Assembly (NCBI RefSeq): GCF_046590535.1
Contig: NZ_JBKJTG010000251.1
Coordinates: forward strand, 10,995-74,994
Length of the DNA stretch: 64,000 nt
Direction: 5' to 3'
From: Phenylobacterium sp.
GTDB taxonomy: Bacteria > Pseudomonadota > Alphaproteobacteria > Caulobacterales > Caulobacteraceae
Position numbers and translations under genes: made by a program. This document shows, in pieces, positions 7,793 through 36,668 of the stretch. Below the pieces are notes generated by a model. That model worked only from the letters and a program-made list of their open reading frames with translations, ran no database searches and was not told the origin of the DNA. Numbering within the stretch: the first letter of the stretch is position 1; each line of letters begins with the position of its first letter.

Positions 7793-7833
7793 AGCCCGCA
7801 AGCTGCCGGTCACGCAGGGTCCGGAGCGACACC

Positions 7834-18326: not shown

Positions 18327-18392
18327 CCGCAGCGCTTCGCCGTTTTCAAGCCGCGCACACGGGATCATTCTGGGCTAAGGCCGTTGCGGCCC

Positions 18393-20166: not shown

Positions 20167-21527
20167 CCGCCGCCGCTGAACGCTCCCTGCTCAGCCGGGT
20201 GCTGGCCAACGCCGGCGTGCTCTTGAGCGGCAAGGCCGCCAACGCGGTCCTCAGCCTGGCCTACATCGCCGTCGCCGCCCGGGCCCTGGGGGTGCGCGAG
20301 GTCGGCGTGTTAATCCTGATCAACGCCTTCGCCCAGCTGATCGGCGAGGTGGTCAAGTTCAACGCCTGGCAGACCGTCCTGCACTATGGGGCCGCCCCGG
20401 TGGCCGAAGGCGACCGGCCACGCTTCCAGCAGGTGATGCGCTTCACCCTCTTCCTCGACGCGGTCAGCGGCCTGGTGGGCGTTACCCTCGCGGTGGCCTG
20501 CGCCCTGGCGTTCGGGCCACGGCTCGGCTGGACCCCGGCGGACAGCCCCGCCGCCGCCCTGTACGGCCTGACCATCCTGGTCATGGCGCCCTCCACCGCC
20601 ATCGGCCTGCTGCGCCTTTTTGACCGTTTCGACCTGATCGCCGCCCAGGCGCCGGTGAGCTCCGTCGTGCGGCTGGCGGGCAGCGGCGCGGCGCTTCTTG
20701 CCGGCGCCTCCCTGACGGGATTCCTGGCCGCCTGGGCGCTCGGGACCGTGGTGGCCTTTGTCTACTTGGCCGTGGCCGCCGTCCGCGAGACCCGCCGACG
20801 CGGCCTGCTGGCCGGGTTCCGCTGGCGTGGGCCGATGGTGGCGGGGCTCCCCGGCGCCTGGCGGTTCGCCTGGGCCACCAACCTCGCCAGCAGCCTGGAC
20901 GCCGCCTTCACCCACGCCATCACCCTGATGGTCGGCGCCCTGATGGGGCCTGCCCCCGCCGCCCTGTGGCGGATCGGCCGCCAGGTCGCCGATGCGCTGG
21001 CCAAGCCCGCGCGGCTGCTGATCCCGGCGCTCTATCCGGAACTCGCCCGGTTGCATGTCACCGAGGGCGAAGGAGCTATGCGGCGCCTGGCCCTCCAGGT
21101 CGGGCTGATCGGAGGCGGCGTAGGCGTGCTCCTGCTGGTCATCACCGCCCTGTTCGGTCGGCCCCTCCTGAGCCTGGTGATGGGCGAGGCCTTCGCTGCG
21201 GCGGGGACCGTGATGACCTGGCAGGTGGCGGCCGCGGTGATCGGCATCCTGGCCCTGCCAATGGAGCCGCTGCTGGTCTCCCTGGGCCGCCCTGGCGACG
21301 TGGTGAAGGTGCGCTTGGCGGTGGCCGTGATCCTGCTGGCCGCCCTGCCCGCGGCCGTGAGCGCCTGGGGTCTCACCGGGGCGGGTGCGTCCCTGGTTGC
21401 GGCGATGGCGGCCCTTGCCCTGGGCATGTTCGCCATGTTGCAGAGACGGGCAGGGCGCGCGACGGTTGGCGCGCCACAGGAAAGGGCTTGCGCCGACGAC
21501 CCGGCGCAGGCGAAGGGCGGCAAGTGA
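20163..21527 (+). CDS. Wzx/MOP-superfamily polysaccharide-type flippase
   Basis: About 12 predicted TM helices. The N-terminus (NAGVLLSGKAANAVLSLAYIAVAARALG) is typical of oligosaccharide flippases. ATGA overlap with the upstream gene. Confidence 0.75.
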   Translation: MTAAAERSLLSRVLANAGVLLSGKAANAVLSLAYIAVAARALGVREVGVLILINAFAQLIGEVVKFNAWQTVLHYGAAPVAEGDRPRFQQVMRFTLFLDAVSGLVGVTLAVACALAFGPRLGWTPADSPAAALYGLTILVMAPSTAIGLLRLFDRFDLIAAQAPVSSVVRLAGSGAALLAGASLTGFLAAWALGTVVAFVYLAVAAVRETRRRGLLAGFRWRGPMVAGLPGAWRFAWATNLASSLDAAFTHAITLMVGALMGPAPAALWRIGRQVADALAKPARLLIPALYPELARLHVTEGEGAMRRLALQVGLIGGGVGVLLLVITALFGRPLLSLVMGEAFAAAGTVMTWQVAAAVIGILALPMEPLLVSLGRPGDVVKVRLAVAVILLAALPAAVSAWGLTGAGASLVAAMAALALGMFAMLQRRAGRATVGAPQERACADDPAQAKGGK

Positions 21528-23239
21528 TGATCCTTCCCACCGCAGCGGATCGCGCCGTCCGGCTCGCTGACTTCGCGACCCTCACCGAGGCCCTGGATTT
21601 CGCCGCCACCGGCGAGACCGGCCTCACCCTCCACGCCATGCGCGGCGACGTGGCCGAGGCGCTCTCCTATGGTCGCCTGCGCGAGGACGCCCTGGCCCTG
21701 GCCCCGCGCCTGCTGGCCGCGGGTCTTGAGCCCGGCGAACGGGTCGGCCTGGTGGCCGAGACCGACGGCGACTTCCTGCGCGCCTTCTTCGCCTGCCAGT
21801 ATGCCGGCCTGATCCCCGCGCCTCTGCCGCTGCCCGCCCCGCTGGGCGGACGCGAGGCCTATGTGGCGCAGGTCACCCGGATGCTGGAGGCCGCCGACGC
21901 CGCGGCCGTCGTGGGTCCTGCGGCTATTACCGCCTGGATGGCCGACGCGCCGCCGGCCGCGGTCCGCTTCGTGGGCGCCCTGACCGACCTGCCCCCGGCC
22001 GCGGGGGCGCCCCTTCCTGACATACGTCCGGACGATCCCTGCTACTTGCAGTTCTCCTCGGGCAGCACGCGCTTTCCCACCGGCGTGCTGGTGACCCATC
22101 GGGCCCTGATGGCCAACGCCCAGGCGATCGTGCGCCACGGCCTGCAAGTGCGGCCCGCCGACCGGGCGAGTTCGTGGCTGCCGCTTTATCATGACATGGG
22201 GCTGGTGGGCTTCGTGCTGACCCCGCTGGCCTGCCAGATGTCGGTGGACCTGCTGCCAACCGGCGCCTTCGTCCGCCGCCCCTTGTTGTGGCTGGAGCTG
22301 ATCAGCCGCAACGGCGCGACCATCTCCTACAGCCCGACCTTCGGCTATGAGCTCTGCACCCGGCGCGCCGACCGCGCCGGGCCCGAGGCCCTGGACCTCT
22401 CGCGCTGGCGCATCGCCGGCCTCGGCGGCGACATGATCCGCTCCGGACCCTTGCGCGACTTCGCCCGCCAGTTCGGCCCCGCCGGCTTCTCGGCGGACGC
22501 CTATGTGACCAGCTACGGCATGGCCGAGGCCACCCTGGCGCTGAGCATGGCGCCCCTGGGCCGCGGCCTGGCGGTGGAGACCCTCGACATCGGCAGGCTG
22601 GAACGCGAAAGCCTGGCTGTCACCGGCGCCGCCTCGGATCGCACCCGCGACTTCGCCCGCTGCGGCCCCGCCCTGCCCGGCCACGAGCTGCAGGTGCGCG
22701 GCGACGACGGCCGGCCCCTGGCCGAGCGCGCCGTGGGCCGCATCTTCGCCCGCGGCCCCAGCCTGATGCGCGGCTATTTCCGCCAGCCGGAGGAGACCGG
22801 GCGGGTGCTCTCCGCCGACGGCTGGCTGGACACTGGCGACCTGGGCTTCCTCGACGGCGGCGAGATCGTGCTAACCGGCCGCAGCAAGGACCTGATGATC
22901 GTCAACGGCCGCAACATCTGGCCGCAGGACCTGGAGTGGACCTGCGAGGACGAGTTGCCTGCCGTGCGCAACGGCGACGTGGCCGCCTTCTCCGTACCCG
23001 GGGCTGACGAGGAGCAGGTGGTGGTTCTCGTGCAGGCCCGGGGCCCTGATCTCGCGGTACGCGACGCCCTGCGCGCCGAGGTCGGCCGCGTGCTGCGCCA
23101 GCGGCACAGCGTTGAGGCGGAGGTCAGGCTGGTGGGCCCCCACGCCCTGCCGCAGACCTCGTCGGGCAAGCTCAGCCGCGCGAAGGCGCGCCAGGCCTAT
23201 CTGGCGGGCGCCTTCGATCTGGAGCGCACCCGGGCGTGA
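21527..23239 (+). CDS. fatty acyl-AMP ligase / acyl-ACP synthetase-like adenylating enzyme
   Basis: The ATG overlaps the flippase stop. AMP-binding motifs are YLQFSSGSTRFPTGV, YGMAE, TGDLG, GRSKD and SSGKLSR. Confidence 0.85.
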   Translation: MILPTAADRAVRLADFATLTEALDFAATGETGLTLHAMRGDVAEALSYGRLREDALALAPRLLAAGLEPGERVGLVAETDGDFLRAFFACQYAGLIPAPLPLPAPLGGREAYVAQVTRMLEAADAAAVVGPAAITAWMADAPPAAVRFVGALTDLPPAAGAPLPDIRPDDPCYLQFSSGSTRFPTGVLVTHRALMANAQAIVRHGLQVRPADRASSWLPLYHDMGLVGFVLTPLACQMSVDLLPTGAFVRRPLLWLELISRNGATISYSPTFGYELCTRRADRAGPEALDLSRWRIAGLGGDMIRSGPLRDFARQFGPAGFSADAYVTSYGMAEATLALSMAPLGRGLAVETLDIGRLERESLAVTGAASDRTRDFARCGPALPGHELQVRGDDGRPLAERAVGRIFARGPSLMRGYFRQPEETGRVLSADGWLDTGDLGFLDGGEIVLTGRSKDLMIVNGRNIWPQDLEWTCEDELPAVRNGDVAAFSVPGADEEQVVVLVQARGPDLAVRDALRAEVGRVLRQRHSVEAEVRLVGPHALPQTSSGKLSRAKARQAYLAGAFDLERTRA

Positions 23240-24168
23240 ACCGCGGCCTGGCCGCGGTCACCGGCGCCACGGGGTTCCTGGGCCAGCATGTGGTGCGCGC
23301 CCTGGCCGACGCCGGCTGGCGGGTGCGCATCCTGGCCCGGCGCGATCCTGTAAGCCTGTTCTGGAGCGGCCTGACTCCCGAAGTCATCCCGGGCGACCTC
23401 GGCGACGCGACCGCCCTGGCCCGCCTCTGCACGGGCGCCGACCTGGTGGTCCATGTGGCGGGATTGATTTCCGGCCGCCGTGGCGACCTGCAGCGGGTCA
23501 ATGTCGAGGGGACCCGACGTCTGGCGCAGGCCGTCCTGGGGGCGGCCGTTCCCCGGGTGCTGCACATCTCGAGCCTGGCGGCCCGCGCGCCGCACCTGTC
23601 GGCCTACGCCGCCAGCAAGCGGGCGGGGGAAGACGTGGTGGAGGCCCTGCTGGGCGGGCGGGTGACCCTCGTGCGGCCGCCCGCCGTCTATGGTCCCGGC
23701 GACCGCGAGACGCTGAGGCTGTTCGCTCTTGCGGCCTCAAGTCCCATGTTGCCGGTGCTGGACCCCGCCGCCCGGGTGGCGGTTGTGCACGTCCAAGACG
23801 CGGCGCGGCAGATCGCATGGCTGGTGGATTTCCCGCACGTGGGCCCCTTCTCGCTCAGCGGCGCCCGCCCGGCGGGCTATGAATGGCGCGAGTTGATGCA
23901 GACAGCGGCCACCGCCCTGGACCGGCCCGCGCGGCTCTTGCGCATCCACCCTGTGGCGCTTTACGGCATGGCGTCGCTGGAGGGTATCGCGAATAGCTGG
24001 CGTCAAAGAACGCCCGTGATTACATTCGGCAAGGTCAGGGAACTGACATATTTGGATTGGGGGATCCGGTCGGCCGAGCGCGCCCCAGGCGCGCCGGCGC
24101 CCGAGTTCGACCTGTTGTCGGGGTTCCGGCAGACGATCGGCTGGTATCGATCGCAGGGTTGGCTCTAG
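23236..24168 (+). CDS. NAD(P)-dependent epimerase/dehydratase-family reductase (CerR-like ceramide reductase candidate)
   Basis: The GTG overlaps the upstream TGA (GTGA). Rossmann motif VTGATGFLGQHV. Catalytic YAASK (YxxxK). Confidence 0.8.
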   Translation: MNRGLAAVTGATGFLGQHVVRALADAGWRVRILARRDPVSLFWSGLTPEVIPGDLGDATALARLCTGADLVVHVAGLISGRRGDLQRVNVEGTRRLAQAVLGAAVPRVLHISSLAARAPHLSAYAASKRAGEDVVEALLGGRVTLVRPPAVYGPGDRETLRLFALAASSPMLPVLDPAARVAVVHVQDAARQIAWLVDFPHVGPFSLSGARPAGYEWRELMQTAATALDRPARLLRIHPVALYGMASLEGIANSWRQRTPVITFGKVRELTYLDWGIRSAERAPGAPAPEFDLLSGFRQTIGWYRSQGWL

Positions 24169-24256
24169 CGCATCCGGCCCGGAGTCTCCTGCGTATAGGC
24201 CTGGGCGCTTGCAAGCGCTCAGCAGGAAAGTCGAGGGGCCGTTGGGGGTAGATCAG

Positions 24257-24508
24257 ATGGAGTTGGTGACCGACCTTACGGTCCGGCAGATCGGGCGGAC
24301 GGCCAGCGTCGTCATGCAACGCAACGTCGAAGTAACCCCGGAATCGGACATTGGCCGTGACCTGGGCGTGGATTCACTGACCTTGATGAACATCGTCATG
24401 GAGCTCGAGGACGTGTTCGAGCTGTCCATTCCACTCGATCGCCTGGCGGACGTGGAGACCGTCGGCGACCTGGCGGGACTGATCAACGAATTGCGGGCGA
24501 GGGCGTAA
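24257..24508 (+). CDS. acyl carrier protein
   Basis: 83 aa, acidic, with the phosphopantetheine site LGVDSLTLM. It ends 2 nt before the spt ATG. Confidence 0.85.
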   Translation: MELVTDLTVRQIGRTASVVMQRNVEVTPESDIGRDLGVDSLTLMNIVMELEDVFELSIPLDRLADVETVGDLAGLINELRARA

Positions 24509-24510
24509 GA

Positions 24511-25728
24511 ATGGGGCTTCTCGACAAGCACCTGGGCTATCGGGCCCCGCTGGACCTCATCCGCAGCGTCGGCGCGGACCCGTCCAACGTTCGGTTCGAC
24601 GCCGTCCTGTCGCCCACTGAGGGCATGCTGGACGGCCGCAAGGTCATCTTGCTGGGCACCAACAATTACCTGGGCCTGACCTTCGACCCGGCCTGTATCG
24701 AGGCCTCGGCCGCCGCGGTGCGCAAGTGGGGCACCGGCACCACCGGTTCGCGGTTCGCCAACGGCACCTTCGCCGGCCACCTGGCGCTGGAAGAGGCGCT
24801 GGCCAAATTCTACGGCCGCAAGCATGCCATGGTGTTCACCACCGGCTACCAAGCGAACCTGGGCGTGATGTCCGGCCTCGTGGGCCGCGGCGACCACCTG
24901 ATTCTCGACGCAGACAGCCACGCCAGCATTTACGACGGCGCCCGGCTCTCACAGTCCGAAGTGATCCGCTTCCGCCACAACGACCCGGAAGACCTCTACA
25001 AGCGCCTGAAGCGCCTGGGCGACCGGCCGGGCGGTCGGCTGATCGTCGTGGAAGGCATCTATTCCATGATGGGCGACGTGGCGCCGCTGAAGGAGATCGT
25101 CGCGGTCAAGCGCGAGATGGGCGCCTATCTGCTCGTCGATGAGGCCCACTCCATGGGCGTCCTGGGCGAGAAGGGCCGCGGCCTGGCCGAGGCCGCCGGC
25201 GTCGAGGATGGCGTCGATTTCATTGTCGGCACCTTCTCCAAGAGCCTCGGCAGCGTCGGCGGATTCGTGGTCTCCGACGAAGACGACTTCGACCTGCTGC
25301 GCATCGTCAGCCGGCCTTACATGTTCACCGCTTCCCTGCCCCCCGCCGTGGTCGCCTCGACGCTGACGGCCCTGACCCGCCTGGAGGAGGACTCCGACCT
25401 TCGCCTCAGGCTTGACGAGAATGCCCGCCACCTGTTCGAGGGCCTGCGCGCCCTGGGTTTCGCCATGGGACCGCAGGCCAGCCCGATCGCGGCCGTGGTG
25501 ATGCCCGACCAGGCCACCGCCGTGGGCATGTGGAACGCCCTGATGGCCAACGGCGTCTACCTGAACCTGGCGGTGCCGCCGGCGACGCCGGAGAACCGCT
25601 CGCTGCTGCGCTCCAGCGTCAGCGCCGCGCACTCCCGCGAACAGCTCGACGAGGTACTCCGTGTGTTCGGGCGGCTCGGCCAGGAATTCGGCCTCCTGCC
25701 GAAGCGCGCGCGCCAAGCCTCAGCCTAG
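24511..25728 (+). CDS. spt: serine palmitoyltransferase (alpha-oxoamine synthase family)
   Basis: GTNNYLGL, DEAHSMG and the PLP-lysine motif TFSKSLGSVGG. Adjacent genes are an ACP, a ligase and a reductase rather than biotin genes. Confidence 0.85.
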   Translation: MGLLDKHLGYRAPLDLIRSVGADPSNVRFDAVLSPTEGMLDGRKVILLGTNNYLGLTFDPACIEASAAAVRKWGTGTTGSRFANGTFAGHLALEEALAKFYGRKHAMVFTTGYQANLGVMSGLVGRGDHLILDADSHASIYDGARLSQSEVIRFRHNDPEDLYKRLKRLGDRPGGRLIVVEGIYSMMGDVAPLKEIVAVKREMGAYLLVDEAHSMGVLGEKGRGLAEAAGVEDGVDFIVGTFSKSLGSVGGFVVSDEDDFDLLRIVSRPYMFTASLPPAVVASTLTALTRLEEDSDLRLRLDENARHLFEGLRALGFAMGPQASPIAAVVMPDQATAVGMWNALMANGVYLNLAVPPATPENRSLLRSSVSAAHSREQLDEVLRVFGRLGQEFGLLPKRARQASA

Positions 25729-25770
25729 AGCCTATCCCGTCCAAATGGACCCATTTGAATGGGATAAAAT

Positions 25771-25839
25771 GGCTCCAAATCAAAAGTTTAGAGCATCTTT
25801 CGTCCGAGAACCGCGTCACACTTCTCGGAAGATGCTCTA
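25771..25839 (-). repeat. dispersed hairpin element, copy A (TAGAGC-stem-loop-GCTCTA-AACTTTTGA-N3-TGGAGCC)
   Basis: On the minus strand it reads TAGAGCATCTTCCGAGAA...TTCTCGGACGAAAGATGCTCTAAACTTTTGATTTGGAGCC. The TAG of the arm is the stop codon of the 25837..26745 gene. It sits between convergent genes and a related copy lies at 52428-52498. Confidence 0.6.
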
Positions 25840-26745
25840 GCGACCCGCCCGCCACATCCGCCACAGGACCCCGGGCGCCGCCAGGATCGGGTGGCGCTCA
25901 CGCCAGGGCGTCACCTCGATCGCGAGGCCGGTGTGCCGCTCGAGCTTCCACGCCGCATAGCTGGCCGCGCCGTCGAAGGTGAAAGCCGCCTTTACCAGCC
26001 TTGCGATGTTCAGCGGCCGCCCCAGCGCCCGGCGTAGGCGCCAGGCGCGCACCAGGCGCCGCCGCTCCGGCGCGGATATCTGCGGGGTCAGCGCTCCGTC
26101 GTCCCCGGCCTCCACGGCGATTCCGCCGGCGCGCCAGGCGGCGGCCACCAGCCGGTTGTAGCGGTCGCCGTCGGCGACCAGCAGGGTAGCTTCCCGGCCG
26201 CGCTCCACCCGGAACTCGGCGGCGTAGGTTTCGCGAAACAGGCTCGTCCAGAAGTCGACCGGCCGTCCCTGGACCGGGCCGAGGGCGGCGGCGAACCGGG
26301 CCGCCGTCTTGGCGGCCTCCGCGACCGCGTCGGCCACCGCCTGGGCGGTCTCGGGGCTGTCGCTCCACACCAGGGCGGCCGGTTGGACAAAGCGGGTCCA
26401 GATGGTGGTGTCGGCGCCACGACCCGTAACGGCGCGCCGGAACTGGGTCAGCGTCATGGCCGCGACCTTGGCCCGCAGCTGCCCCTGGTCATCGGAAGTC
26501 TCGCGATAGCTGACGTCCGGCCACAGGCCGCGGCTGGCGATCCCGCGCAGGCCTCGGGGCGAAGTGCGGGTGAGGACATAGAAATCCAGCACCCCGTCGC
26601 GGTCTCCGGTGCGCAGGGCCGAGCCGTAGAACAGCACCGCCACCGGGTCGTCGAAGGCCTCGGCCAGCGTGCGGGCGAAGGCCACCGCGGAGGCCGGCGC
26701 CGGCTGGGCAAGGTCTTCGCCGATGATCTGCGCCAGGTCGGTCAC
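25837..26745 (-). CDS. hypothetical protein with a nucleotidyltransferase-fold motif (possibly Tam41/Mmp37-like cytidylyltransferase; CpgC-position gene)
   Basis: The GTG start forms a GTGA overlap with the kinase stop. LFYGSALRTGDRDGVLDFYVL resembles a G-S...D-x-D NTase motif. Only the last 302 codons of the 505-aa ORF are used. Confidence 0.55.
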   Translation of the reverse strand: MTDLAQIIGEDLAQPAPASAVAFARTLAEAFDDPVAVLFYGSALRTGDRDGVLDFYVLTRTSPRGLRGIASRGLWPDVSYRETSDDQGQLRAKVAAMTLTQFRRAVTGRGADTTIWTRFVQPAALVWSDSPETAQAVADAVAEAAKTAARFAAALGPVQGRPVDFWTSLFRETYAAEFRVERGREATLLVADGDRYNRLVAAAWRAGGIAVEAGDDGALTPQISAPERRRLVRAWRLRRALGRPLNIARLVKAAFTFDGAASYAAWKLERHTGLAIEVTPWRERHPILAAPGVLWRMWRAGR

Positions 26746-27647
26746 GGAGTCAGGAACCGCAGGGGCGGCGCCTCGGTCACGGTCAGGTCGCCACCGGGAT
26801 AGACCTCGCCATCGAGAACGAAGGGGCTGTCGAGGGTAAGCCGTAGGGACGCGGCGTCGCCGCGCCGGTAGCCATGGCGCTCCAGCCAGCGGTCGCGCCG
26901 GGTCCACAGCAGCGCCGGCAACGCCTGCGCCAGGCGTTGCGGCGGGGCCTGTACGTCCAGGTACTTCAACCCCGGCCGGGCGGGGCCGAAGGGCCGAAGC
27001 GCGAAGGGCAGTCGGTGCAGGGTGGTGGCCATGGTGATCAGCCGGGGGCCGGACCGCGCGGGGCCGTCGTCGACGGTGAGCGTCAGGGGCGCCCCGCGAC
27101 GCCAGGCGCCGCGCGCGTTCTCCGCCGCGAACTGGGCGACGGCGCCGGCCAGGGTCAGGCCCACCGACGCGTTCTGGAAAACCCCCGCCCGATGGACGCC
27201 GGCGGCAAGGGCCGTGGCTCTCACCAAGCCCGCGGCGCCGAAGACGAAGCCCTGCAACGGCGGCTGGCCGTCGCGGTTGACCTGCAGCGGCGCGCGGACC
27301 CGCACTTTGGGCTTCACTTTCCCGGCCGCCGCCCGGGCGTCGGCGAGGGTCCATGATCGCCGGACGCCCAGGTCGAAGGCCAGGATGTTTGTCTTGCCGG
27401 ACGGGATCACCGAGAGCAGCGGCGCCTCGCCGAACGCAGCCGGCAGGGCGCTAAGCACCTCGCGCACGGTGCCGTCGCCGCCATCGATGACCAGCAGTTC
27501 GACGCCCTCGGCCACGAACCGCGCCAGGTCTGCCGCCAAGGCCCCCGGGGACAGGGGCTCGGCGAATAGCAGGCCGGGTTCGCTGGGCGCAGCGGGGGCG
27601 CCTCGGTTCCCATGGCTGCGCGGATTGCGGATCACGCCGGTGCGCAT
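26742..27647 (-). CDS. DAG-kinase-fold lipid kinase (ceramide kinase CpgB-like)
   Basis: Start MRTGVIRNPRSHGN overlaps the upstream stop (TGATG). DAGK catalytic motif LLVIDGGDGTVREV. Second motif IPSGKTNILAFDLG. Confidence 0.8.
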   Translation of the reverse strand: MRTGVIRNPRSHGNRGAPAAPSEPGLLFAEPLSPGALAADLARFVAEGVELLVIDGGDGTVREVLSALPAAFGEAPLLSVIPSGKTNILAFDLGVRRSWTLADARAAAGKVKPKVRVRAPLQVNRDGQPPLQGFVFGAAGLVRATALAAGVHRAGVFQNASVGLTLAGAVAQFAAENARGAWRRGAPLTLTVDDGPARSGPRLITMATTLHRLPFALRPFGPARPGLKYLDVQAPPQRLAQALPALLWTRRDRWLERHGYRRGDAASLRLTLDSPFVLDGEVYPGGDLTVTEAPPLRFLTP

Positions 27648-28780
27648 CAGCGGGAGAGCCAGGACACCACCGCGCCGCGCGGGACTGCCGCCGCCTGGAC
27701 GCATTGCGCCAAATGCACCACGAAGCTGATCACCGTCCAGACGGCCACGGCCAGGATGCCGATGTCCGGCCGCCCGGCGAGGACCGCCAGGGTGAGCAGG
27801 ATCAGGTTCGGATTGCGCCGGGCGGTGATCAGCCGGAAGAAGCTGTCAAACGGCCGCCAGGCGTGCATCTCCACCTTGAAGGCGCCCAGGAAGATCCCTT
27901 CCAGCACCCGCTGCGCCACGTAGCCGCCGACGACGATCCAGATGACCGCGCCCGGAGCGGTGAGCGGGTGCGGGCCGGCCTGCGCGCCCATCACCCAGGC
28001 GGCCCACCAGAACGGTGGATGAATCAGGTCGATGCCGTGGTCGAAGACGTTGCCCAGGGGCGAAGATTTCAGGGTCACCCGGGCGAGCTTGCCGTCGACG
28101 GTGTCCAGGAAGGTCATCACCCACGCCGCCGCCAGGCCCCAGCCGAACTGGCCGGTCCAGAACAGCCAGAGCGCCGCCAGCACCAGCAGCAGGCTGGCGA
28201 AGGTCACCTGGTTGGGGGTGATCCCGGCCAGGGCGCACCAACGGGTCACCACCCGGGCCGGCGCGGGCCAGACATACTTGGTCACCAGGTCCGTGACGCC
28301 CTTGTAGGAACCCTGGAACAGCCGCTTCTCCACCTGGCGGACATTGTCGGCGGTAAGCCGTTCCAGCACCGGCGGCTCGCGCTTGCGCAGCGTGCTGTTG
28401 TAGGCGCCCAGCAGGTCCAGGGCGGTGAGCCGCTGGGCGAGATCATGGCCGAGGTCGCCGGCGTCCAGGCCCTGCGCCGCCGCGGCCGCCAAAGGGCCTG
28501 CAATATGCGCCGCCACCGGCCGGCCGGTGGTGTCAACCAGCACGGCCCCGGGACGTTCCGCCAGGGCGCGGATCAGGGCTTCGTCGAACACCCAGCCGGC
28601 ATGGGCCAACACCACCGTCGCGTCGGCGGCTGCATCCCCAGGCTGGACTTCGGCCAGGTCCAGGCGGGCGAAGGTGCGGCTCAGCCGGGCGCTGGAGCTG
28701 GCGCCCCACACCCGCACGCCGGAGGCGCCGACGGTCGCCGCCAGCGGCCTCGCCGGGCCCGCACGCAACGCATTGGTCAA
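27647..28780 (-). CDS. CDP-alcohol phosphatidyltransferase family protein with an N-terminal soluble extension
   Basis: Exact family signature D-x2-DG-x2-AR-x8-G-x3-D-x3-D in DTVDGKLARVTLKSSPLGNVFDHGIDLIH. Polytopic C-terminal half. The start is uncertain: TTG at 28780 is preferred, and ATG at 28897 would overlap the divergent gene. Confidence 0.85.
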   Translation of the reverse strand: MTNALRAGPARPLAATVGASGVRVWGASSSARLSRTFARLDLAEVQPGDAAADATVVLAHAGWVFDEALIRALAERPGAVLVDTTGRPVAAHIAGPLAAAAAQGLDAGDLGHDLAQRLTALDLLGAYNSTLRKREPPVLERLTADNVRQVEKRLFQGSYKGVTDLVTKYVWPAPARVVTRWCALAGITPNQVTFASLLLVLAALWLFWTGQFGWGLAAAWVMTFLDTVDGKLARVTLKSSPLGNVFDHGIDLIHPPFWWAAWVMGAQAGPHPLTAPGAVIWIVVGGYVAQRVLEGIFLGAFKVEMHAWRPFDSFFRLITARRNPNLILLTLAVLAGRPDIGILAVAVWTVISFVVHLAQCVQAAAVPRGAVVSWLSR

Positions 28781-28858
28781 GATCGCTCGCCCCTGTAAAC
28801 GCTTATCCGCTGTCTTACGCCGCTCCGGCGCGGACTGGCCACAAGCTACGGACCACCC

Positions 28859-29761
28859 TTGCCTTTGTTTCGCCTGGCCCACCTCTCTGACCCGCACCTG
28901 CCGTCACCCCTGACCCTGGGACCGGCCGGCGAGCTGGTCTCCAAGCGGACGCTCAGCCGGCTGGCCTGGCGACGCAAGCACCGGCAACACGATCCGGCGG
29001 TCCTGGGGCAGATCAGCGCCGACATCACCGCCTACGCCCCCGACCACATCGCGCTCACCGGCGACCTGACCAACTTCTCCACCCAGGCCGAATTCGCCGC
29101 CGCCCGCACATGGCTGGAGTCGCTAGGCCCCGCAGACCGAGTGACCGTCAGCCCCGGCAACCACGACGCCCTGACTGCGGACGCGCAGGCCGACCGGGTC
29201 GCGGCGTTCGGGCCCTGGTTCGGCGATGGTGGCGAGGCGCACTTTCCCAGGGTTCGCCGGCGCGGCCCCGTCGCGCTGGTCAACCTCTGCTCGGCGGTCC
29301 CCACGCCGCCGCTCTTGGCCAGCGGCCGGCTGGGCGAGGCGCAGCTCGAACGACTTTCGCAGGCGCTGGACGACCTGGGCCGCGAAGGCCTGTTCCGCGT
29401 CGTGTTGCTGCACCATCCGGCGGGCGCCGGCGTGGTGTCGCGGCGCAAGGCGCTGGCGGACGGGCCCGAGTTTCGGGAGGTGTTGCGGCGTCATGGGGCT
29501 GAGCTGGTGCTGCACGGCCACGCCCACGAGGCGGTGTTCGGCGTGGTGGCGGGTCCACACGGGCCGATCCCGGTGCTGGGCGTCCCCTCCGCCTCGGCGC
29601 CTTCAGGAACGCAACACGCCGCCGCCCGCTGGCACGCCATCGAGATCGAGCCGGGTGAGGGCCTGCGGGTGATCGCCCGCGGTCTGGAAGCCCGGTCCGG
29701 CGAGGTCGGCGAGCTGGGCCGGTACGCCCTGCCCGGCCTCAGCGCAGGTATCGCAGCCTGA
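28859..29761 (+). CDS. metallophosphoesterase
   Basis: Motifs HLSDPH, TGDLTN, GNHD, HHP and GHAH occur in canonical order. TTG start. Confidence 0.8.
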   Translation: MPLFRLAHLSDPHLPSPLTLGPAGELVSKRTLSRLAWRRKHRQHDPAVLGQISADITAYAPDHIALTGDLTNFSTQAEFAAARTWLESLGPADRVTVSPGNHDALTADAQADRVAAFGPWFGDGGEAHFPRVRRRGPVALVNLCSAVPTPPLLASGRLGEAQLERLSQALDDLGREGLFRVVLLHHPAGAGVVSRRKALADGPEFREVLRRHGAELVLHGHAHEAVFGVVAGPHGPIPVLGVPSASAPSGTQHAAARWHAIEIEPGEGLRVIARGLEARSGEVGELGRYALPGLSAGIAA

Positions 29762-30212
29762 TGCGGATGGTGTTGTCCCCCGGTCCGACCGGAAAGCGCA
29801 CGGCCCGCAGGGGCGGCAGGGCGGCGGGCGTCGGCGGATCGTTGGAGAACCCGAACCCTTCCGCCGGCAGGCCCACCACCGTGCGGTCGAAATCGCTGTC
29901 GGCGTCGGCGTCATGATAGACCGCCACCGCATAGTATCCGGGCCGCGCCAGGTTGAAGCAGGCGGACGTGACCGGCGCCTGGGCCTTGGGCCGCACCCGC
30001 GCCAGCTTGCCGCCCGGCGCCAGGAAGCGCGTCGCCATGTCGGGATAGACGGTCATGGCCACCTGGCCGCGGGCCGCGCGCACGCCGCTGACCTGGACCG
30101 TGAGGGTCGAGGCGCCCGGCTGGCCCTCGCAATCGGCGGCCACGGCTGCGGGCGCCCACAGGCCAAGGGCGGCGGCCAGGGGGATCAAGGCCGATGTCCT
30201 TGCTGATTTCAC
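29739..30212 (-). CDS. DUF2141-like secreted protein
   Basis: Signal peptide. Then VAMTVYPD...F........., YAVAVYHDADADSDFDRTVVGLPAEGFGFSND, typical of DUF2141. Confidence 0.7.
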   Translation of the reverse strand: MKSARTSALIPLAAALGLWAPAAVAADCEGQPGASTLTVQVSGVRAARGQVAMTVYPDMATRFLAPGGKLARVRPKAQAPVTSACFNLARPGYYAVAVYHDADADSDFDRTVVGLPAEGFGFSNDPPTPAALPPLRAVRFPVGPGDNTIRIRLRYLR

Positions 30213-30273
30213 GGGGATGGACGAGCCTCTCGATGTATCAACCGCTGCACGTTACGGCAGGCAAGACGCCCAG

Positions 30274-30711
30274 ATGACCAACGCCACCGCCGTCAGCTTC
30301 GGCTTCCCCGAAACCTTGGTGGGCGAGACCAGGTCCTGGCTGGTGCTCGCGCGTCCCAAGCAGCCGACATTTGGCGCGCTCGTGCTAATTTGCAAGGAGG
30401 AGGCCCAGGCCTTCTCTGACCTCAGCGCCACAGCCTTCGCCGATCTTGGCCTCGCCGTGAGCGCCGTCGAGACCCTGCTTCGCAAGGTCGTGGGCTACCA
30501 GCAGATCAACTACCTGATGCTGATGATGGTCGACCGCGATGTCCATTTCCACGTGATCCCGCGCTACCAGGGCGAGCGCGTCCACGAGGGCATGAGCTTC
30601 CCCGACGCCGGCTGGCCGGGCCAGCCCGACCTGGGCGCCGCGATGGACCTGGGTCCCGAGGGCGCCGCGCGCCTGGCGGCGTTCCTGCGGCAGCAATGGC
30701 CCGCAGCTTGA
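30274..30711 (+). CDS. HIT-family (histidine triad-like) nucleotide hydrolase/transferase
   Basis: DRDVHFHVIPRY is a degenerate HxHxH motif, and the size fits the family. An alternative ATG lies at 30217. Confidence 0.65.
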   Translation: MTNATAVSFGFPETLVGETRSWLVLARPKQPTFGALVLICKEEAQAFSDLSATAFADLGLAVSAVETLLRKVVGYQQINYLMLMMVDRDVHFHVIPRYQGERVHEGMSFPDAGWPGQPDLGAAMDLGPEGAARLAAFLRQQWPAA

Positions 30712-31934
30712 GCCGAAAGCCGAGATCCGAGGGGGCGGCGCCGCATCTGGCCCTGATCGACCGCTACGTGCTGCGCATGACGGCCTGGCCTATGTTGGGC
30801 TGCCTGGGGGTCACCGTCACCTCCCTGCTCTTGGAGCGCACCTTGCGGCTGCTGGACCTCCTGTCGCAGTCCAATAGCCGGTTCGGATCGGTCCTGGAGC
30901 TGACCGCCAACCTGCTGCCCCACTACCTGGGCCTGGCCCTGCCGGTGGCCTTCTTCGTGGCCCTGTTCATCGTCATCACCAAGCTGGATGACGGCTCGGA
31001 GATCGAGGCCTTCCTGGCCAGTGGCGTGCCGCTCACCCGGCTGGCGGCGCCCTATGTGGCCCTGGGTCTGGTGCTGATGTCGATCAGCCTGGTGGTGTTC
31101 GGCTACCTGCAGCCCTACAGCCGCTACGCCTATCGCGCGGTGCTGCACGCCGCCGTCAACGCCGGCTGGGACGGTCGCCTGCACGGCGGGGCCTTCGTCA
31201 GCGACGGCGACAACATCATGACCGCCGACAGCGCCAGCCTCGAGGGCCGACGTCTGCAGCACGTGTTCATCCGCCGCGCCACGCCCGGCGGCGGCGAGGA
31301 GGTTCTGACCGCCCGCTCGGCGCAGCTCTCCCCCCAGCCGGATGGCAAGACCGTCACCCTGGTCCTGCAGAACGGGGCCCGGCTCAGCGAGAACCGCTCG
31401 GGCGACTTCGACAGCCTGCGCTTCGACACCTTCACCATGCAGACCAATGTGGCGGACGCCGCGGCGCTGCTGCGGTCACGGGGCGGCGACGAGCGCGAGC
31501 TGACGCTTACGGAACTGGCCATCCGCGCCGGATCGCCCATGCCGGTGATCCCGCGCGAGACCCTGCTGGCCGAGCTCTATGGCCGGCTGGCGCGGTCCGT
31601 CGTCCTGCCGTTCCTGCCGCTGATCGCCCTGCCGCTGGGACTGGCCGCCAAGCGCCGCCGCAGGACCGCGGGGCTGCTGCTGGCCGGCGCGCTCCTCCTG
31701 GGTTTCCAGCACGGGCTGCAGTTCGGCCAGGGTCTGGCCGAGACCGGCCGGGTGTCCCCGGAGATCGGCGTCGGCGCCCCCTTCTTCCTGTTCACCGGCT
31801 TCTGCCTGTGGATGTTCGCCGGCAGCCGCCGGCGACCGGGTGAGACGCCCATCGGGCGCTTCGTGCAGGCCCTGGGGGATTCCATAGAACGGCTCCAGGC
31901 GTTGCTCCGCCCGCGCAAGGCGGCAGCCTCATGA
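30696..31934 (+). CDS. LptF/LptG-family (YjgP/YjgQ) permease, LptF-like
   Basis: IDRYVLRM start region, six TM segments and a large periplasmic beta-jellyroll insert between TM3 and TM4. Confidence 0.8.
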   Translation: MARSLSRKPRSEGAAPHLALIDRYVLRMTAWPMLGCLGVTVTSLLLERTLRLLDLLSQSNSRFGSVLELTANLLPHYLGLALPVAFFVALFIVITKLDDGSEIEAFLASGVPLTRLAAPYVALGLVLMSISLVVFGYLQPYSRYAYRAVLHAAVNAGWDGRLHGGAFVSDGDNIMTADSASLEGRRLQHVFIRRATPGGGEEVLTARSAQLSPQPDGKTVTLVLQNGARLSENRSGDFDSLRFDTFTMQTNVADAAALLRSRGGDERELTLTELAIRAGSPMPVIPRETLLAELYGRLARSVVLPFLPLIALPLGLAAKRRRRTAGLLLAGALLLGFQHGLQFGQGLAETGRVSPEIGVGAPFFLFTGFCLWMFAGSRRRPGETPIGRFVQALGDSIERLQALLRPRKAAAS

Positions 31935-32992
31935 GGCTTGGCGGCTACGTCCTTCGGCTGGTGGCCCTGCGCATCCTGGGCGCCGCCGCCATCCTGCTGG
32001 CCGTCCTGCAGATCCTCGACCTCCTGGAAGTCACTCCGGAGATCGTCGAGCGCGGCCTGGGCCTGGCCGGGATCGTGCAGTACGCGGCCCTGCGCCTGCC
32101 GCGGCTGATCGACCAGGCGGCGCCCCTGGCGGTTCTGGCCGGGGGCATCTTCGCCTTCATGAAACTGGCTGGCGACAGCGAGATCGTCGCCATGCGCGCC
32201 TCCGGCGTCTCCGCCTACAAGCTGGTGGCCATGGCCCTGCCGGCGGCTTTGGCGGTGGTGGTGATCGACTTCGCCGCGGTCGAGCTCGTGGCGCCCAGGA
32301 CCGATCCGGCGCTGCAGTCCTGGTGGCGCGCCACCGCCCCGCCAGCGCCCGCCGCGGACCCCAAGCCGAAGGCCTTCCGGGTGGGCGGAGACGTGGTCTC
32401 GGCCGCCACCACCGACCTGACCGGCCGCAGTCTGAAGGACGTGCGGATCTACCGGCGCGACGCAGGCGGCCGCCTCACCGAGCGGATCGACGCGGCCAAC
32501 GCCACCTGGGCGCCCGGCGGCTGGCGGCTGGCCAACCCGCGCTTCGTCAGGTTCAACGCCGCCGGCGCCTCCAGCGGCCAGGCGGCCACCATCACCTGGA
32601 CGGCAGCCTTCGAGCCGGCCGACGTGCAGTCCCTGTTCTTCGGGGAGCAGACCATCTCCGCGGCCTCCGCGGGGCGCGCCCTGGCCGGCGGCGGAGCGCA
32701 GCGGCCGGACAGCTACTACGCCACGCGGCTGCAGCGCTCCATTGCCAGCCCCCTGGGCGGCCTGATCATGCTGCTCCTGGCCGCGCCCATAGCCCTGGCC
32801 AGCTTCCGCTCCAGCCAGGGGGCGATGTTCGTCACCGCCAGCCTGGGCGCGGGCCTGATGTTCCTGGTGGCGGATGGCCTGCTGGCGGCCCTGGGCGAGA
32901 GCGGCGCGGTGTCGCCCCTGCTGGCCGCCTGGACCGCCCCCCTGGTGTTCGCGGCGCTGGGAGCCACGGCGCTGATCCAGTTGGAAGGCTGA
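31931..32992 (+). CDS. LptF/LptG-family permease, LptG-like
   Basis: ATGA overlap with the preceding gene. Architecture is the same as the LptF-like gene. GDSEIVAMRASGVS motif. Confidence 0.8.
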   Translation: MRLGGYVLRLVALRILGAAAILLAVLQILDLLEVTPEIVERGLGLAGIVQYAALRLPRLIDQAAPLAVLAGGIFAFMKLAGDSEIVAMRASGVSAYKLVAMALPAALAVVVIDFAAVELVAPRTDPALQSWWRATAPPAPAADPKPKAFRVGGDVVSAATTDLTGRSLKDVRIYRRDAGGRLTERIDAANATWAPGGWRLANPRFVRFNAAGASSGQAATITWTAAFEPADVQSLFFGEQTISAASAGRALAGGGAQRPDSYYATRLQRSIASPLGGLIMLLLAAPIALASFRSSQGAMFVTASLGAGLMFLVADGLLAALGESGAVSPLLAAWTAPLVFAALGATALIQLEG

Positions 32993-34125
32993 TGGGCGGC
33001 CTCGCGCTCAGCCCGGTGCGCACCAAGGCCGAGCTCGAACGGTTCATCCGCTTGCCCATGCGCCTGAACGCCCACGACCCGGCCTGGGTCGCGCCGCTCC
33101 TGATGGAACGCCGAGAGGCGCTCTCGGCCAAATCCAACCCGTTCTTCGCCCACGCCGAGGTGGAGATGTGGCTGGCCACCCGCGACGGCGTCGACGTGGG
33201 CCGGATCAGCGCCCAGATCGACCGGCTCGCCCCCCAGGACCGGCAACGTCCCGCCGGCGCCTTCGGCCTGATCGCGGCGGAGGATGACTCGGCCACTTTC
33301 GGCGCCCTGTTCGAGGCGGCGGAAGCCTGGCTGAAGTCTCGTGGGATGGCCGCCGCCATGGGGCCCCTGAACCTGTCGGTGAACGAGGAGGTGGGGCTGC
33401 TGGTGGACGGCTTCCAGACGCCGCCCATGCTGATGATGGGCCACGACCAGCCCTATGTCGCCGGCCGCATTGAGGAACAGGGCTACGTCAAGGCCAAGGA
33501 CATCTACGCCTACATCGGCAGCCTGCACCACGGCCTGGCGCGGCTGTTCGACCGGGCCCGCCGCGACCCCATGCCGGGGGTGGTGCTCCGCCCGCTGGAC
33601 ATGTCGCGATATGCGGCCGAGGTCGCCACTCTCACCGAGATCCTCAATGACGCCTGGCGTGAAAACTGGGGGTTTACGCCCACCACTGAGGCGGAGACCC
33701 GCCACCTGGCCCAGGCGCTCAGGCCAGTGATCGACCCGGGGCTAATCTGGTTCGCCGAGATCGACGGCGAGCCGGCCGGCGTGCTGGTGGGCCTGCCCAA
33801 CGTCAACGAGGCCATCGCGGACCTGGACGGACGGCTGTTCCCGTTCGGCTGGGCCAAGCTTCTCTGGCGGCTGAAGGTGCGCGGCGTGAAGAGCGCCCGG
33901 GTGCCGCTGATGGGCGTGAAGCGCGCCTACGCCGGCACGCTCCGGGGCCAGCGCCTGCCGTTCCTGATGATGGGCGCTGTGATCACGCAGGCCCAGGCGC
34001 GGGGCTATGAACGCTACGAGTACTCCTGGATCCTGGAGGAAAACCTGGCCATGCGACGGATCTGCGAGGCGGCCCACGCGCGCATCTACAAGACCTACCG
34101 GATCTACCAGAAGGCCCTGGCTTGA
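32992..34125 (+). CDS. GNAT-like N-acyltransferase (bacterial ceramide synthase bCerS candidate)
   Basis: The ATG overlaps the lptG-like stop (TGATG). About 377 aa. The N-terminal LERFIRLPMRLNAHDPAWVAPLL region and the acyltransferase-like C-half fit the family. It is co-localised with spt. The assignment rests on context plus family resemblance. Confidence 0.6.
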   Translation: MGGLALSPVRTKAELERFIRLPMRLNAHDPAWVAPLLMERREALSAKSNPFFAHAEVEMWLATRDGVDVGRISAQIDRLAPQDRQRPAGAFGLIAAEDDSATFGALFEAAEAWLKSRGMAAAMGPLNLSVNEEVGLLVDGFQTPPMLMMGHDQPYVAGRIEEQGYVKAKDIYAYIGSLHHGLARLFDRARRDPMPGVVLRPLDMSRYAAEVATLTEILNDAWRENWGFTPTTEAETRHLAQALRPVIDPGLIWFAEIDGEPAGVLVGLPNVNEAIADLDGRLFPFGWAKLLWRLKVRGVKSARVPLMGVKRAYAGTLRGQRLPFLMMGAVITQAQARGYERYEYSWILEENLAMRRICEAAHARIYKTYRIYQKALA

Positions 34126-34904
34126 ACGGCTTCACCGCCCTGGTGCTGGCCGGGTCACGGGTCGGCGCCGATCCCGTGGCGGCCTATGCGGGCGTCACCC
34201 ACAAGGGGCTCATCGTCCTGGATGGCCAGACCCTGTTGGCCCGCGTGCTCCACGCCCTGGACGCCGCCGGCGCGGCGCGCATCTGCGTGTCCTCCAACGA
34301 CCCCGCCATCGACACCGAACTGGCCGCCATCAGCCTCAACGCCAGTGTCGAGAGGATCGAGGCGGGGGCCAGCCCAAGCCTTAGCGTCGCGCAGGCGCTG
34401 GAACACCTGGGCGCGCCGCTGCTCGTGACCACCTGCGACCACGCGCTCCTGCGCCCGGAGTGGATCCGGCAGTTCCGCAAGGACGCGCCGGCCGAGGCCG
34501 ACATCGCGGTCCTGCTCGCCCCTGAAGACGCCGTGCGCGCCGCCGCGCCGCAGACTGAACGGACCTATCTGGCCTTCCGCGATGGGCGCTATTCGGGGTG
34601 CAACCTCTTCCTGCTGCGGACGTCCCGGGCGCGGGCGGCGGTGGATCTCTGGCGCCGCGTCGAGGCGCACCGCAAGCAGCCTTGGCGGATCGCCCTGATG
34701 CTGGGTCCGGCGATGCTGTTCGGCTTCATCCTGCGGCGGCTGACCCTCGACGGGGCTGTTCGCCGGCTGGGCCGCCGTGCAGGGGTGGCGGCCACGGCCG
34801 TCCTGACGCCCTTCGGCCTGGCGGCGGTGGACGTGGACAAGCCCGCCGATCTCGATCTGGTGCGCGCCCTGGTGGCCGCCGGCGATCCGGCTCAGCGCAC
34901 GTAG
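34122..34904 (+). CDS. MobA-like NTP-transferase domain protein
   Basis: The TTG overlaps the upstream TGA. N-terminal ALVLAGSR...KGLIVLDGQTLL nucleotide-binding pattern. Confidence 0.65.
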   Translation: MNGFTALVLAGSRVGADPVAAYAGVTHKGLIVLDGQTLLARVLHALDAAGAARICVSSNDPAIDTELAAISLNASVERIEAGASPSLSVAQALEHLGAPLLVTTCDHALLRPEWIRQFRKDAPAEADIAVLLAPEDAVRAAAPQTERTYLAFRDGRYSGCNLFLLRTSRARAAVDLWRRVEAHRKQPWRIALMLGPAMLFGFILRRLTLDGAVRRLGRRAGVAATAVLTPFGLAAVDVDKPADLDLVRALVAAGDPAQRT

Positions 34905-35608
34905 CTGGCGCCGTTGATGTCGAGCACCGCGCCGGTCATCGACGCCGGCGCCTCCAGCGCCAGGTAGGCGGCGGCGCTGGCCACCTCCGCCGGGTCCGCC
35001 ACCCGGCCCAGCGGGATGTCCGCCAGGAGCTTGTCGCCGCCGCGGCTGGCCACATAGTCGTCCGCCATGCCGGTCATCACGAAGCCCGGGCAGATGGCGA
35101 AGCACAGGATCCCCTGGCCGGCGTAGCCGCGGGCGATCGACTTGCTCATGCCAATCAGGCCGGCCTTCGACGCTGCATAGTGCCAGTGCTGGGGCGAGTC
35201 GCCGCGATAGGCTGCGCGGCTGGCGATATTGACGATCCGCCCGCCGCCGGTGTCCTGGAAGTGCAGCACCGCGCGCCGGCTAAGGTCGGCGGCGGCCTGG
35301 AGATTGATCTGCAGGGTGTTCGCCCAGCCGGCCCGCCAGGCTTCGGGCTCAGCATCCACCGGCAGGGCCTCGAACACGCCGGCGTTGTTCACCAGCACGT
35401 CGATCCGGCCGCCCAGCCGCGCCAGCGCCCGGTCCCACAGGCGGTCGGCCTCGCCGGGCCGGGAAAGGTCGGCGCCCAGAACGCCCCCCCCGTCCGTGCG
35501 GCCGTGGCCGATCACCCGCGCGCCGCGCTCGGCCAGGGTGGCGACGATGGCGGCGCCGATCCCCCGCGTGGAGCCGGTGACGAGGATGTGTCGCGGATCG
35601 GACGTCAC
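34892..35608 (-). CDS. SDR-family oxidoreductase
   Basis: TGSTRGIGAAI (TGxxxGIG), NNAG and YAASKAG (YxxxK). Confidence 0.9.
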   Translation of the reverse strand: MTSDPRHILVTGSTRGIGAAIVATLAERGARVIGHGRTDGGGVLGADLSRPGEADRLWDRALARLGGRIDVLVNNAGVFEALPVDAEPEAWRAGWANTLQINLQAAADLSRRAVLHFQDTGGGRIVNIASRAAYRGDSPQHWHYAASKAGLIGMSKSIARGYAGQGILCFAICPGFVMTGMADDYVASRGGDKLLADIPLGRVADPAEVASAAAYLALEAPASMTGAVLDINGASYVR

Positions 35609-35620
35609 GGAGTTGAGGCC

Positions 35621-36376: not shown

Positions 36377-36668
36377 GGAAAGACCGCCCCCATCGCGACG
36401 CCGTTGCAACGCGCCATTCTACCAGCCACCAGCCGGTTCCGACAGGCGTGGCGGGCAGCCTTTGCGCTGGTGTTCTCGCCAATCGTCGGCCCGCGGCGCA
36501 ATTCCTCGAGCCGGTGCTTGCCCGAGGCAGCTTGGATGGGCCAGATGCTTCTCGTTCGGGGTCGGGTTCGGGTAGGCGTATGACAGGCATGACGAGATGG
36601 CTGCGGAGGGCGGACGCCCTGGCCGCCGTGCTCATCCGGGCCGCCGCGCCGGGAAGCAGTTTTCGCAG

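Follow-up and report, generated by a model that had tools for sequence, protein, structure and literature searches.

The closest described relatives of the genes considered here belong to the sphingolipid cluster CC_1168–CC_1152 of Caulobacter crescentus, in which CC_1159 is cpgA (a PF01066 protein), CC_1160 is cpgB (the ceramide kinase), CC_1161 is cpgC and CC_1152 is cpgD (PMC11324152); cpgA-cpgB-cpgC are also numbered CCNA_01217–01219. Here we analyse a 64,000-nucleotide (nt) stretch of DNA from Phenylobacterium sp. (contig NZ_JBKJTG010000251.1, positions 10,995 to 74,994 of the forward strand; hereafter the window), which carries three minus-strand genes beside the gene for serine palmitoyltransferase (spt). 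The three are almost certainly the orthologues of cpgA, cpgB and cpgC. The system is therefore the known cpg pathway, and the hypothesis followed here is not a new one. Two results stand at the centre of the analysis. The third protein of the triad, 302 amino acids (aa) long, is in its modelled structure a Tam41-type nucleotidyltransferase (NTase), and genetics together with gene context shows that the gene order of kinase, NTase and transferase is not to be read as the order of the reactions.

What is known of the pathway comes from Caulobacter, and concerns ceramide phosphoglycerate (CPG) and ceramide diphosphoglycerate (CPG2). Deletion of cpgB removes ceramide phosphate, CPG and CPG2 altogether, and deletion of cpgC leads to the accumulation of ceramide phosphate with no CPG (PMC9393093). 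Deletion of cpgA (CC_1159), reported independently by two laboratories, leaves CPG in place and abolishes only CPG2 (PMC9393093, PMC11324152), and CC_1160 alone restores CPG in a mutant lacking both CC_1159 and CC_1160 (PMC11324152). CPG is also kept when cpgD is deleted, and purified CpgD makes cytidine diphosphate (CDP)-glycerate, the proposed donor for CpgA (PMC12275187). Ceramide kinase activity has been demonstrated for C. crescentus CpgB (PMC10331486), which is able to phosphorylate diacylglycerol (DAG) too. An earlier, sequence-only reading of the window held that only the kinase step was biochemically defined, which the characterization of CpgD has put out of date. The same reading presented CDP-ceramide as new biochemistry. 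A nucleoside diphosphate (NDP)-ceramide is indeed plausible, but the idea had already been proposed by Olea-Ozuna et al. (2024), who noted a Tam41 InterPro domain in CC_1161 homologues (their S1 Text) and suggested an NDP-activated ceramide. The term ‘CDP-ceramide’ and its variants were not found in the literature searched; the concept is in print as ‘NDP-activated ceramide’ (Olea-Ozuna 2024).

The triad of the window reads as follows.

27647 to 28780, minus strand: cpgA-like CDP-alcohol phosphotransferase, 377 aa, from TTG at 28780 to the stop TGA at 27649-27647.
26742 to 27647, minus strand: cpgB-like lipid (ceramide) kinase, 301 aa, from ATG at 27647-27645 to the stop TGA at 26744-26742.
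25837 to 26745, minus strand: cpgC-like NTase of predicted Tam41 fold, 302 aa, from GTG at 26745-26743 to the stop TAG at 25839-25837.

The sequence-only reading described a minus-strand trio chained by overlaps of 1 and 4 nt, and this was borne out when positions 25700-28960 were read again. Thus, the ATG of the kinase and the stop of the transferase have one base in common (TGATG), and the start of the 302-aa gene overlaps the kinase stop by 4 nt (GTGA). The three open reading frames (ORFs) are genuine, conserved genes. A promoter scan of the triad region gave no sigma-70-like sites. The kinase carries the DAG-kinase GDGT motif ascribed to it earlier (27468-27479) and scores above the cut-off with Pfam DAGK_cat (39.1 bits against 23.6, E 6.4e-10); its NCBIfam matches, to YegS/lipid kinases, are weak, and a hydrophobicity scan detected no hydrophobic segment in it.

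The triad is taken as cpgA, cpgB and cpgC because it lies beside spt in a cluster that matches that of C. crescentus gene for gene.

18384 to 36409, both strands: whole sphingolipid cluster, 18 kb.
24511 to 25728, plus strand: spt, convergent with the triad, read from the ORF translation; 66-82% identity in related loci.

All 17 published genes from CC_1168 to CC_1152 were found within these limits in the published order. The PF01066, DAGK-fold and CC_1161-type genes of the window are co-directional, adjoin one another and converge on spt, as in C. crescentus cpgABC, whose three families, gene order and strand with respect to spt are the same. The wider cluster is present as well, with cpgD, CC_1153, bcerS, the lptF/G paralogues, acp, cerR and the acyl-ACP synthetase. 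The two species have in common, on one flank, the metallophosphoesterase, HIT protein, lptF/G paralogues, bcerS, CC_1153-like gene and cpgD, and on the other acp, cerR, the acyl-ACP synthetase, the flippase and the CC_1167-like and LptC-like genes; what sets the window apart is a DUF2141 gene and, in the interval from the CC_1153-like gene to cpgD, an extra short-chain dehydrogenase (SDR) gene. The correspondence to cpgABC, which the sequence-only reading had drawn from the position next to spt, therefore holds in order, strand and flanking genes.

A genome scan seeded with a first alignment (A1) and taking one genome per species gave 588 relatives of the 302-aa protein, of which the best 80 loci were examined; these 80 are biased towards Caulobacterales and Sphingomonadales, and two distant representatives (P0133 and P0249) lie on contigs too short for gene context. 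The arrangement of the triad with spt recurs in more than 40 Caulobacteraceae loci of the 80. Gene order is kept across the entire cluster in 40-odd Caulobacteraceae loci, and Caulobacter, Phenylobacterium and Brevundimonas have the same layout at 45-87% protein identity; the three triad proteins are 49-72% identical to those of other Caulobacter species.

The 302-aa protein belongs to a large family, with more than 3,800 homologues, all annotated ‘hypothetical’, that fall into 981 clusters at 50% identity. Its closest named homologues are from Phenylobacterium, Caulobacter and Caulobacteraceae metagenome-assembled genomes (MAGs), those from Phenylobacterium and the Caulobacteraceae MAGs being 63-73% identical. 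An alignment of 120 diverse homologues (A2) was used for the AlphaFold2 model, for the conservation counts and for hhalign. The model is of high confidence (mean predicted local distance difference test score, pLDDT, 95.6; predicted template modelling (TM) score, pTM, 0.91). A Foldseek search of the PDB with it placed Tam41 CDP-DAG synthases at ranks 1-5 (Schizosaccharomyces pombe 6ig4 and 6ig2, and 7ecd from Firmicutes), with E-values from 5.9e-9 to 5.1e-7, probability 1.00 and TM-scores of 0.50-0.60. Because some 280-295 columns align, the match spans both the NTase domain and the domain that follows it. Indeed, the Tam41 fold of 6ig2, 6ig4 and 7ecd consists of an NTase domain and a helical/winged-helix domain, and both are matched by the model. 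The next family, the aminoglycoside nucleotidyltransferases ANT(4'), reached a TM-score of only ~0.30. The comparison with Tam41 by sequence profile points the same way, as hhalign of A2 against the Tam41 PDB sequences aligned 163 columns with a probability of 76% and E 2.2e-5, and 17 of the 120 family members match PF09139 (Tam41_Mmp37), the best at E 1.1e-6. The resemblance to Tam41 that the sequence-only reading had suspected is thus upheld at the level of predicted structure. Both proteins are soluble or peripheral, with no predicted transmembrane segment. They differ in sequence, with ~10-12% identity, and in substrate, which is phosphatidic acid for Tam41 and presumably ceramide-1-phosphate for the CpgC-like protein.

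The residue-level alignment agrees with the fold.

26584 to 26628, minus strand: NTase core motif Y40-G41-S42 ... D54 (LFYGSALRTGDRDGVLDFYVL), aligned to the YGS of Tam41 and to the Asp of its IDFIF.

Thus, hhalign pairs Y40-G41-S42 with the YGS of Tam41, D54 with the Asp of IDFIF, K93 with the Lys of KYG, R118-F-V-Q-P122 with GRFQKP, and T173-Y174-A-A-E177-F-R179-V-E181 with SYxGDxR..AEN. The two families have in common YGS, a single catalytic Asp, the KYG Lys, the Arg and Pro of GRFQKP (R..P) and [ST]Y-x-[AG]-[DE]-x-R. G41, D54, K93, R118, Q121 and R179 are invariant in 120 of 120 homologues; S42 is kept in 114, E177 and E181 in 119 each, and the remaining aligned positions also come close to invariance. 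The sequence-only reading had pointed to a G-S...D-x-D motif, of which the first half stands, in that Y40-G41-S42 is conserved, and the second does not: D48 is Asp in 32 of the 120 homologues and D50 in 55, and the D-x-D was rejected as the catalytic motif. By conservation, the invariant acid of the CpgC-like protein is D54. Tam41 itself retains one of the three canonical NTase acids, which is unusual (PMC11646218), and the same trait is found in CpgC. K93 and R118 are, moreover, the counterparts of K109 and R133 of human TAMM41, both annotated as binding cytidine triphosphate (CTP) (PMC8935507).

Residues 235-302 (window positions 25840-26043) are among the most conserved stretches of the family and are specific to it when compared with Tam41. 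Within them, R249, K252, Y263, K267, R270 and H271 are invariant or near-invariant across the 120 homologues. This conservation exceeds what a simple membrane-binding tail would lead one to expect, and the C-terminal ~70 residues may serve in substrate binding or in a second reaction.

These results, together with the Caulobacter data, lead us to consider it likely, with moderate confidence, that the cpg operon, which converts ceramide to the anionic outer-membrane sphingolipids CPG and CPG2, works as two modules rather than as one linear chain. The reasoning is that making a phosphodiester from ceramide-1-phosphate needs an activated phosphate, which is what Tam41 provides for phosphatidic acid. 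In the first module, the CpgB kinase would form ceramide-1-phosphate, a step demonstrated biochemically for the Caulobacter orthologue; CpgC would then use a nucleoside triphosphate, probably CTP, to convert ceramide-1-phosphate to CDP-ceramide and pyrophosphate; and condensation of the activated phosphate with a glycerate-type acceptor, by CpgC itself or by another protein, would yield CPG. In the second module, CpgD would make CDP-glycerate, as demonstrated for Caulobacter, and CpgA, to judge from genetics and family chemistry, would move phosphoglycerate from CDP-glycerate onto CPG, yielding CPG2 and cytidine monophosphate. We infer the activation step from the fold, the conserved active-site residues and the mutant phenotypes, and the Tam41-type character of the 302-aa protein makes a CDP- or NDP-ceramide product reasonable. 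We lean, if only slightly, towards CpgC making a nucleotide-activated (NDP-) ceramide. The more specific proposal, that CpgC-type proteins are ceramide-1-phosphate cytidylyltransferases, that their CDP-ceramide is consumed by a still-unknown transferase and that they form a bacterial offshoot of mitochondrial Tam41, seems to us evenly poised.

Having made this proposal, we would note several points that weigh against it. First, the relation to Tam41 is remote, because a PDB search with a 120-sequence profile missed Tam41 and returned only a weak generic NTase (9xbd, E 0.018); searches with the single sequence and with a 34-sequence profile gave noise and nothing, respectively. The 302-aa protein also has no Pfam (E <= 1) or NCBIfam match, and falls under all Pfam thresholds, that of PF09139 included. 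Second, three of the five CTP-binding positions of TAMM41 are not kept in CpgC (K136 is replaced by the invariant Q121, T199 by A175, and N208 is unmatched), which leaves CTP as no more than the probable nucleotide of CpgC. Third, no enzyme is assigned to the condensation of glycerate with activated ceramide, no biochemical assay of CpgC or CpgA was found in the literature searched, and a preprint of May 2026 still describes the CpgC mechanism as unidentified. Finally, orthology to CCNA_01217–01219 rests on synteny and on the identity to other Caulobacter species given above.

The alternative that survives best is that CpgC releases no free NDP-ceramide, which we nevertheless think unlikely. 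It may be conceived in two ways: as a self-contained ligase, which would activate ceramide-1-phosphate transiently and join glycerate to it in one active site, or as a phospho-alcohol transferase of NTase fold, which would use CDP-X donors in the manner of LicD or fukutin. That genetics found no separate condensing enzyme speaks for this alternative, as do the conserved polar residues in the C-terminal third of the protein (R249 to H271, listed above). The NTase fold does support phospho-alcohol transfer in the LicD/FKRP family. Three objections are to be set against this alternative. Tam41 stands far above other NTases in the Foldseek search, with no LicD or FKRP protein among the 50 matches listed; CDP-glycerate is an unlikely donor because the cpgD deletion keeps CPG; and phosphoglycerate transferred onto ceramide-1-phosphate would be expected to yield a pyrophosphate rather than the observed mass of CPG.

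The second alternative, the linear route of the sequence-only reading, has the kinase make ceramide-1-phosphate, the NTase convert it to CDP-ceramide and the CDP-alcohol phosphotransferase attach the first head group. In its favour, the triad is translationally coupled, and the A-B-C order with overlaps is met again in a distant locus whose CpgC is ~31% identical (L082); PF01066 enzymes classically take a CDP-activated lipid, CDP-DAG, as donor; Zik et al. remarked on the PgsA-like domain of CpgA; and the Tam41 fold of the 302-aa protein would supply the CDP-lipid required. The genetics contradicts this chain, since the Caulobacter cpgA deletion retains CPG and loses CPG2 only, and since the kinase alone restores CPG to the CC_1159/CC_1160 double mutant. 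Nor can the coupling be taken as evidence of consecutive steps, because Caulobacter has the same coupling and yet separate genetic roles for these genes. We hold the linear route to be quite improbable.

Gene context argues against the linear route as well. In 78 of the 80 related loci the kinase gene is the immediate upstream neighbour of the cpgC-like gene, and 65 of these 78 have a 4-nt overlap between the stop of the kinase and the start of cpgC. Many sphingomonad loci have cpgB-cpgC without a neighbouring cpgA, as does one distant locus described below (L081), and Zymomonas mobilis is reported to have cpgB and cpgC and no cpgA. Where the cluster is split, cpgA sits with cpgD, in the order cpgD-CC_1167-like-cpgA in Sphingomonas (L042, L063, L072, L076 and L080) and beside cpgD and the HIT gene in Novosphingobium (L066, L067 and L075). 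In these arrangements cpgA follows cpgD, not cpgC.

The signature of the transferase is complete, as the sequence-only reading had claimed, and PF01066 scores above the cut-off (42.9 bits against 22, E 8.4e-11).

28028 to 28096, minus strand: CDP-alcohol phosphotransferase signature DGKLARVTLKSSPLGNVFDHGID, with D-G-x2-A-R-x8-G-x3-D-x3-D complete.
35621 to 36409, minus strand: predicted cpgD-like CTP:phosphoglycerate cytidylyltransferase (Pfam NTP_transf_3 and NTP_transferase).

The pattern D-G-x2-A-R-x(7,12)-G-x3-D-x3-D has one match in all six frames of the window, the transferase, and no second PF01066 signature was found there as a candidate acceptor enzyme for CDP-ceramide, which is a further point against the linear route. 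The first ~180 aa of the protein form a soluble part, after which comes a membrane domain; the hydrophobic segments 189-212 and 326-363 in a Kyte-Doolittle scan are those of an integral membrane domain. The TTG start at 28780 suits homologue alignments that open at residues 1-17, and the ORF is open further upstream, to a GTG at 28897. Its PDB sequence matches are phosphatidylinositol-phosphate (PIP) synthase/AF2299 fusions and CHPT1/CEPT1, and its best PDB and NCBIfam matches together are PIP synthases, IPCT/DIPPS and choline/ethanolamine phosphotransferases; the full CDP-alcohol signature is common to IPCT/DIPPS, AF2299, PIP synthase, CHPT1/CEPT1 and the window transferase. It is not a PIP, phosphatidylserine or cardiolipin synthase, because its NCBIfam scores all lie far below the equivalog cut-offs. 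Unlike the group of PIP synthase and IPCT/DIPPS, CpgA would take CDP-glycerate as donor and a sphingolipid head group as acceptor, a combination proposed as unique to the Cpg pathway.

The sequence-only reading had the transferase consume CDP-ceramide. Caulobacter genetics and the linkage to cpgD favour CDP-glycerate instead, and the CpgD homologue that would provide it is the gene at 35621-36409. The PDB matches of this protein are 1jyk, a CTP:phosphocholine cytidylyltransferase, and 4jd0 (IMPCT), the latter being the homologue named by the CpgD paper as well (PMC12275187). Because CpgD resembles both of these, the CpgD-CpgA pair mirrors IPCT plus DIPPS, that is, a transferase with a separate cytidylyltransferase.

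The last alternative takes the 302-aa protein for a conventional bacterial CDP-DAG synthase of Tam41 type, acting on phosphatidic acid and only indirectly linked to sphingolipids. It can draw on the existence of bacterial Tam41 homologues that make CDP-DAG (7ecd) and on the ability of CpgB to phosphorylate DAG. It is very improbable, however, given that the cpgC deletion specifically accumulates ceramide phosphate and makes no CPG, that 78 of the 80 loci keep the gene together with spt and the ceramide kinase, and that divergence from PF09139 has gone so far in this family that the window protein does not score.

From the LptC-like gene onwards, the cluster runs through the CC_1167-like gene, flippase, acyl-ACP synthetase, cerR, acp, spt and cpgC/B/A, and continues with the phosphoesterase, DUF2141 gene, HIT gene, lptF/G-like pair, bcerS (a GNAT-like candidate), CC_1153-like gene, SDR and cpgD. 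Its other features are the following.

19003 to 20166, plus strand: CC_1167-like protein, with a sub-threshold TagF-type match (E 0.024) over its C-terminal 96 residues.
25729 to 25836, no strand: AT-rich spacer that separates spt from the convergent cpgC-like gene, from reading of the sequence.
28859 to 29761, plus strand: CC_1158-like metallophosphoesterase, divergent from the triad (Pfam Metallophos 5.7e-11).
30274 to 30711, plus strand: HIT-family protein, the CC_1157 homologue, with HFHVIPR (Pfam HIT E 8e-4, just below the cut-off).
34122 to 34904, plus strand: CC_1153-like NTase of MobA/CofC type (Pfam NTP_transf_3 1.4e-15).
34892 to 35608, minus strand: SDR, between the cpgD-like and CC_1153-like genes.

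The spacer between spt and cpgC is strikingly AT-rich against a genome of ~70% GC. It contains a minus-strand hairpin of terminator-like form (25794-25772), a consensus match only, of which ~1.3 would be expected by chance in the scanned region. The spacer measures ~100 nt in the window, and in three Caulobacter loci (L021, L027 and L035) an additional 2.5-3.7 kb separates cpgC from spt. The SDR gene follows the co-directional cpgD-like gene after 13 nt, and looks like a lineage-specific insertion because two related loci that reach cpgD (L002 and L024) have their two NTase genes directly adjacent.

The CpgD paper drew an analogy to the teichoic-acid enzymes TagD/TagF (CDP-glycerol synthase plus glycerophosphotransferase), in which a soluble CDP-activated three-carbon acid or alcohol is added as a phosphodiester repeat to a lipid-anchored acceptor (PMC12275187). 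The triad transferase differs from the TagF family in belonging to PF01066, and the cluster does hold a weakly TagF-like gene, the CC_1167-like one. As a TagF-type candidate this gene was dropped, its Pfam match being sub-threshold and a search of the PDB giving no sequence match. HIT enzymes act on nucleotide alpha-phosphates, and the HIT protein of the cluster sits in a pathway with three NTases. In Novosphingobium, four loci (L064, L066, L067 and L075) have cpgA beside the HIT gene, with cpgD adjacent too in three of the four, L064 being the exception. Because cpgA adjoins them in split clusters, the CC_1167-like and HIT proteins are candidates for CDP-glycerate-dependent steps or for further polymerization; in the Caulobacter paper, CC_1167 and the HIT protein were both left aside as probably unrelated.

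The CC_1153-like gene calls for a separate remark. Caulobacter genetics assign CC_1153 to the formation of CPG2 (PMC11324152). Across the Sphingomonas and Novosphingobium loci L040, L047-L049, L057-L059 and L062-L080 (positions ~7000-9700), cpgB-cpgC-CC_1153-like, rather than cpgA-cpgB-cpgC, is the conserved co-directional unit, with the CC_1153-like gene directly downstream of cpgC, and CC_1153 is by virtue of this unit physically tied to the first module. Two other arrangements deserve mention. The first is L081 (GCA_004843165.1, CP039459.1; 4261-7930), from a genome of 1.9 Mb, whose CpgC is 31% identical; its kinase and CpgC genes adjoin spt, next to genes for a fatty-acid hydroxylase and an NTP_transf_3 protein, and there is no PF01066 gene within 7 kb. 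The second is seen in five loci from Phenylobacterium MAGs (L010-L014, ~6800-8900), which lack the phosphoesterase and cpgA and show a short kinase match, 42% identical, some 700 nt before cpgC; this suggests loss by deletion of part of the kinase along with the second module.

Taken by itself, the window provides another cpgABC orthologue and in silico support for a published hypothesis, and no new system. What is added here is a high-confidence fold match, a residue-level mapping onto Tam41, counts of the coupling of cpgB to cpgC, and the tracking of cpgD by cpgA. The pathway matters because Caulobacter can do without lipid A thanks to CPG2, which is also the target of polymyxin and colistin there, and because the conversion of ceramide-1-phosphate to CPG is its sole reaction without an assigned mechanism. 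If CpgC makes CDP-ceramide, this would be the first nucleotide-activated sphingolipid, a counterpart of CDP-diacylglycerol, and a bacterial relative of Tam41 would gain a second lipid substrate in a family as widespread as its 981 clusters indicate.

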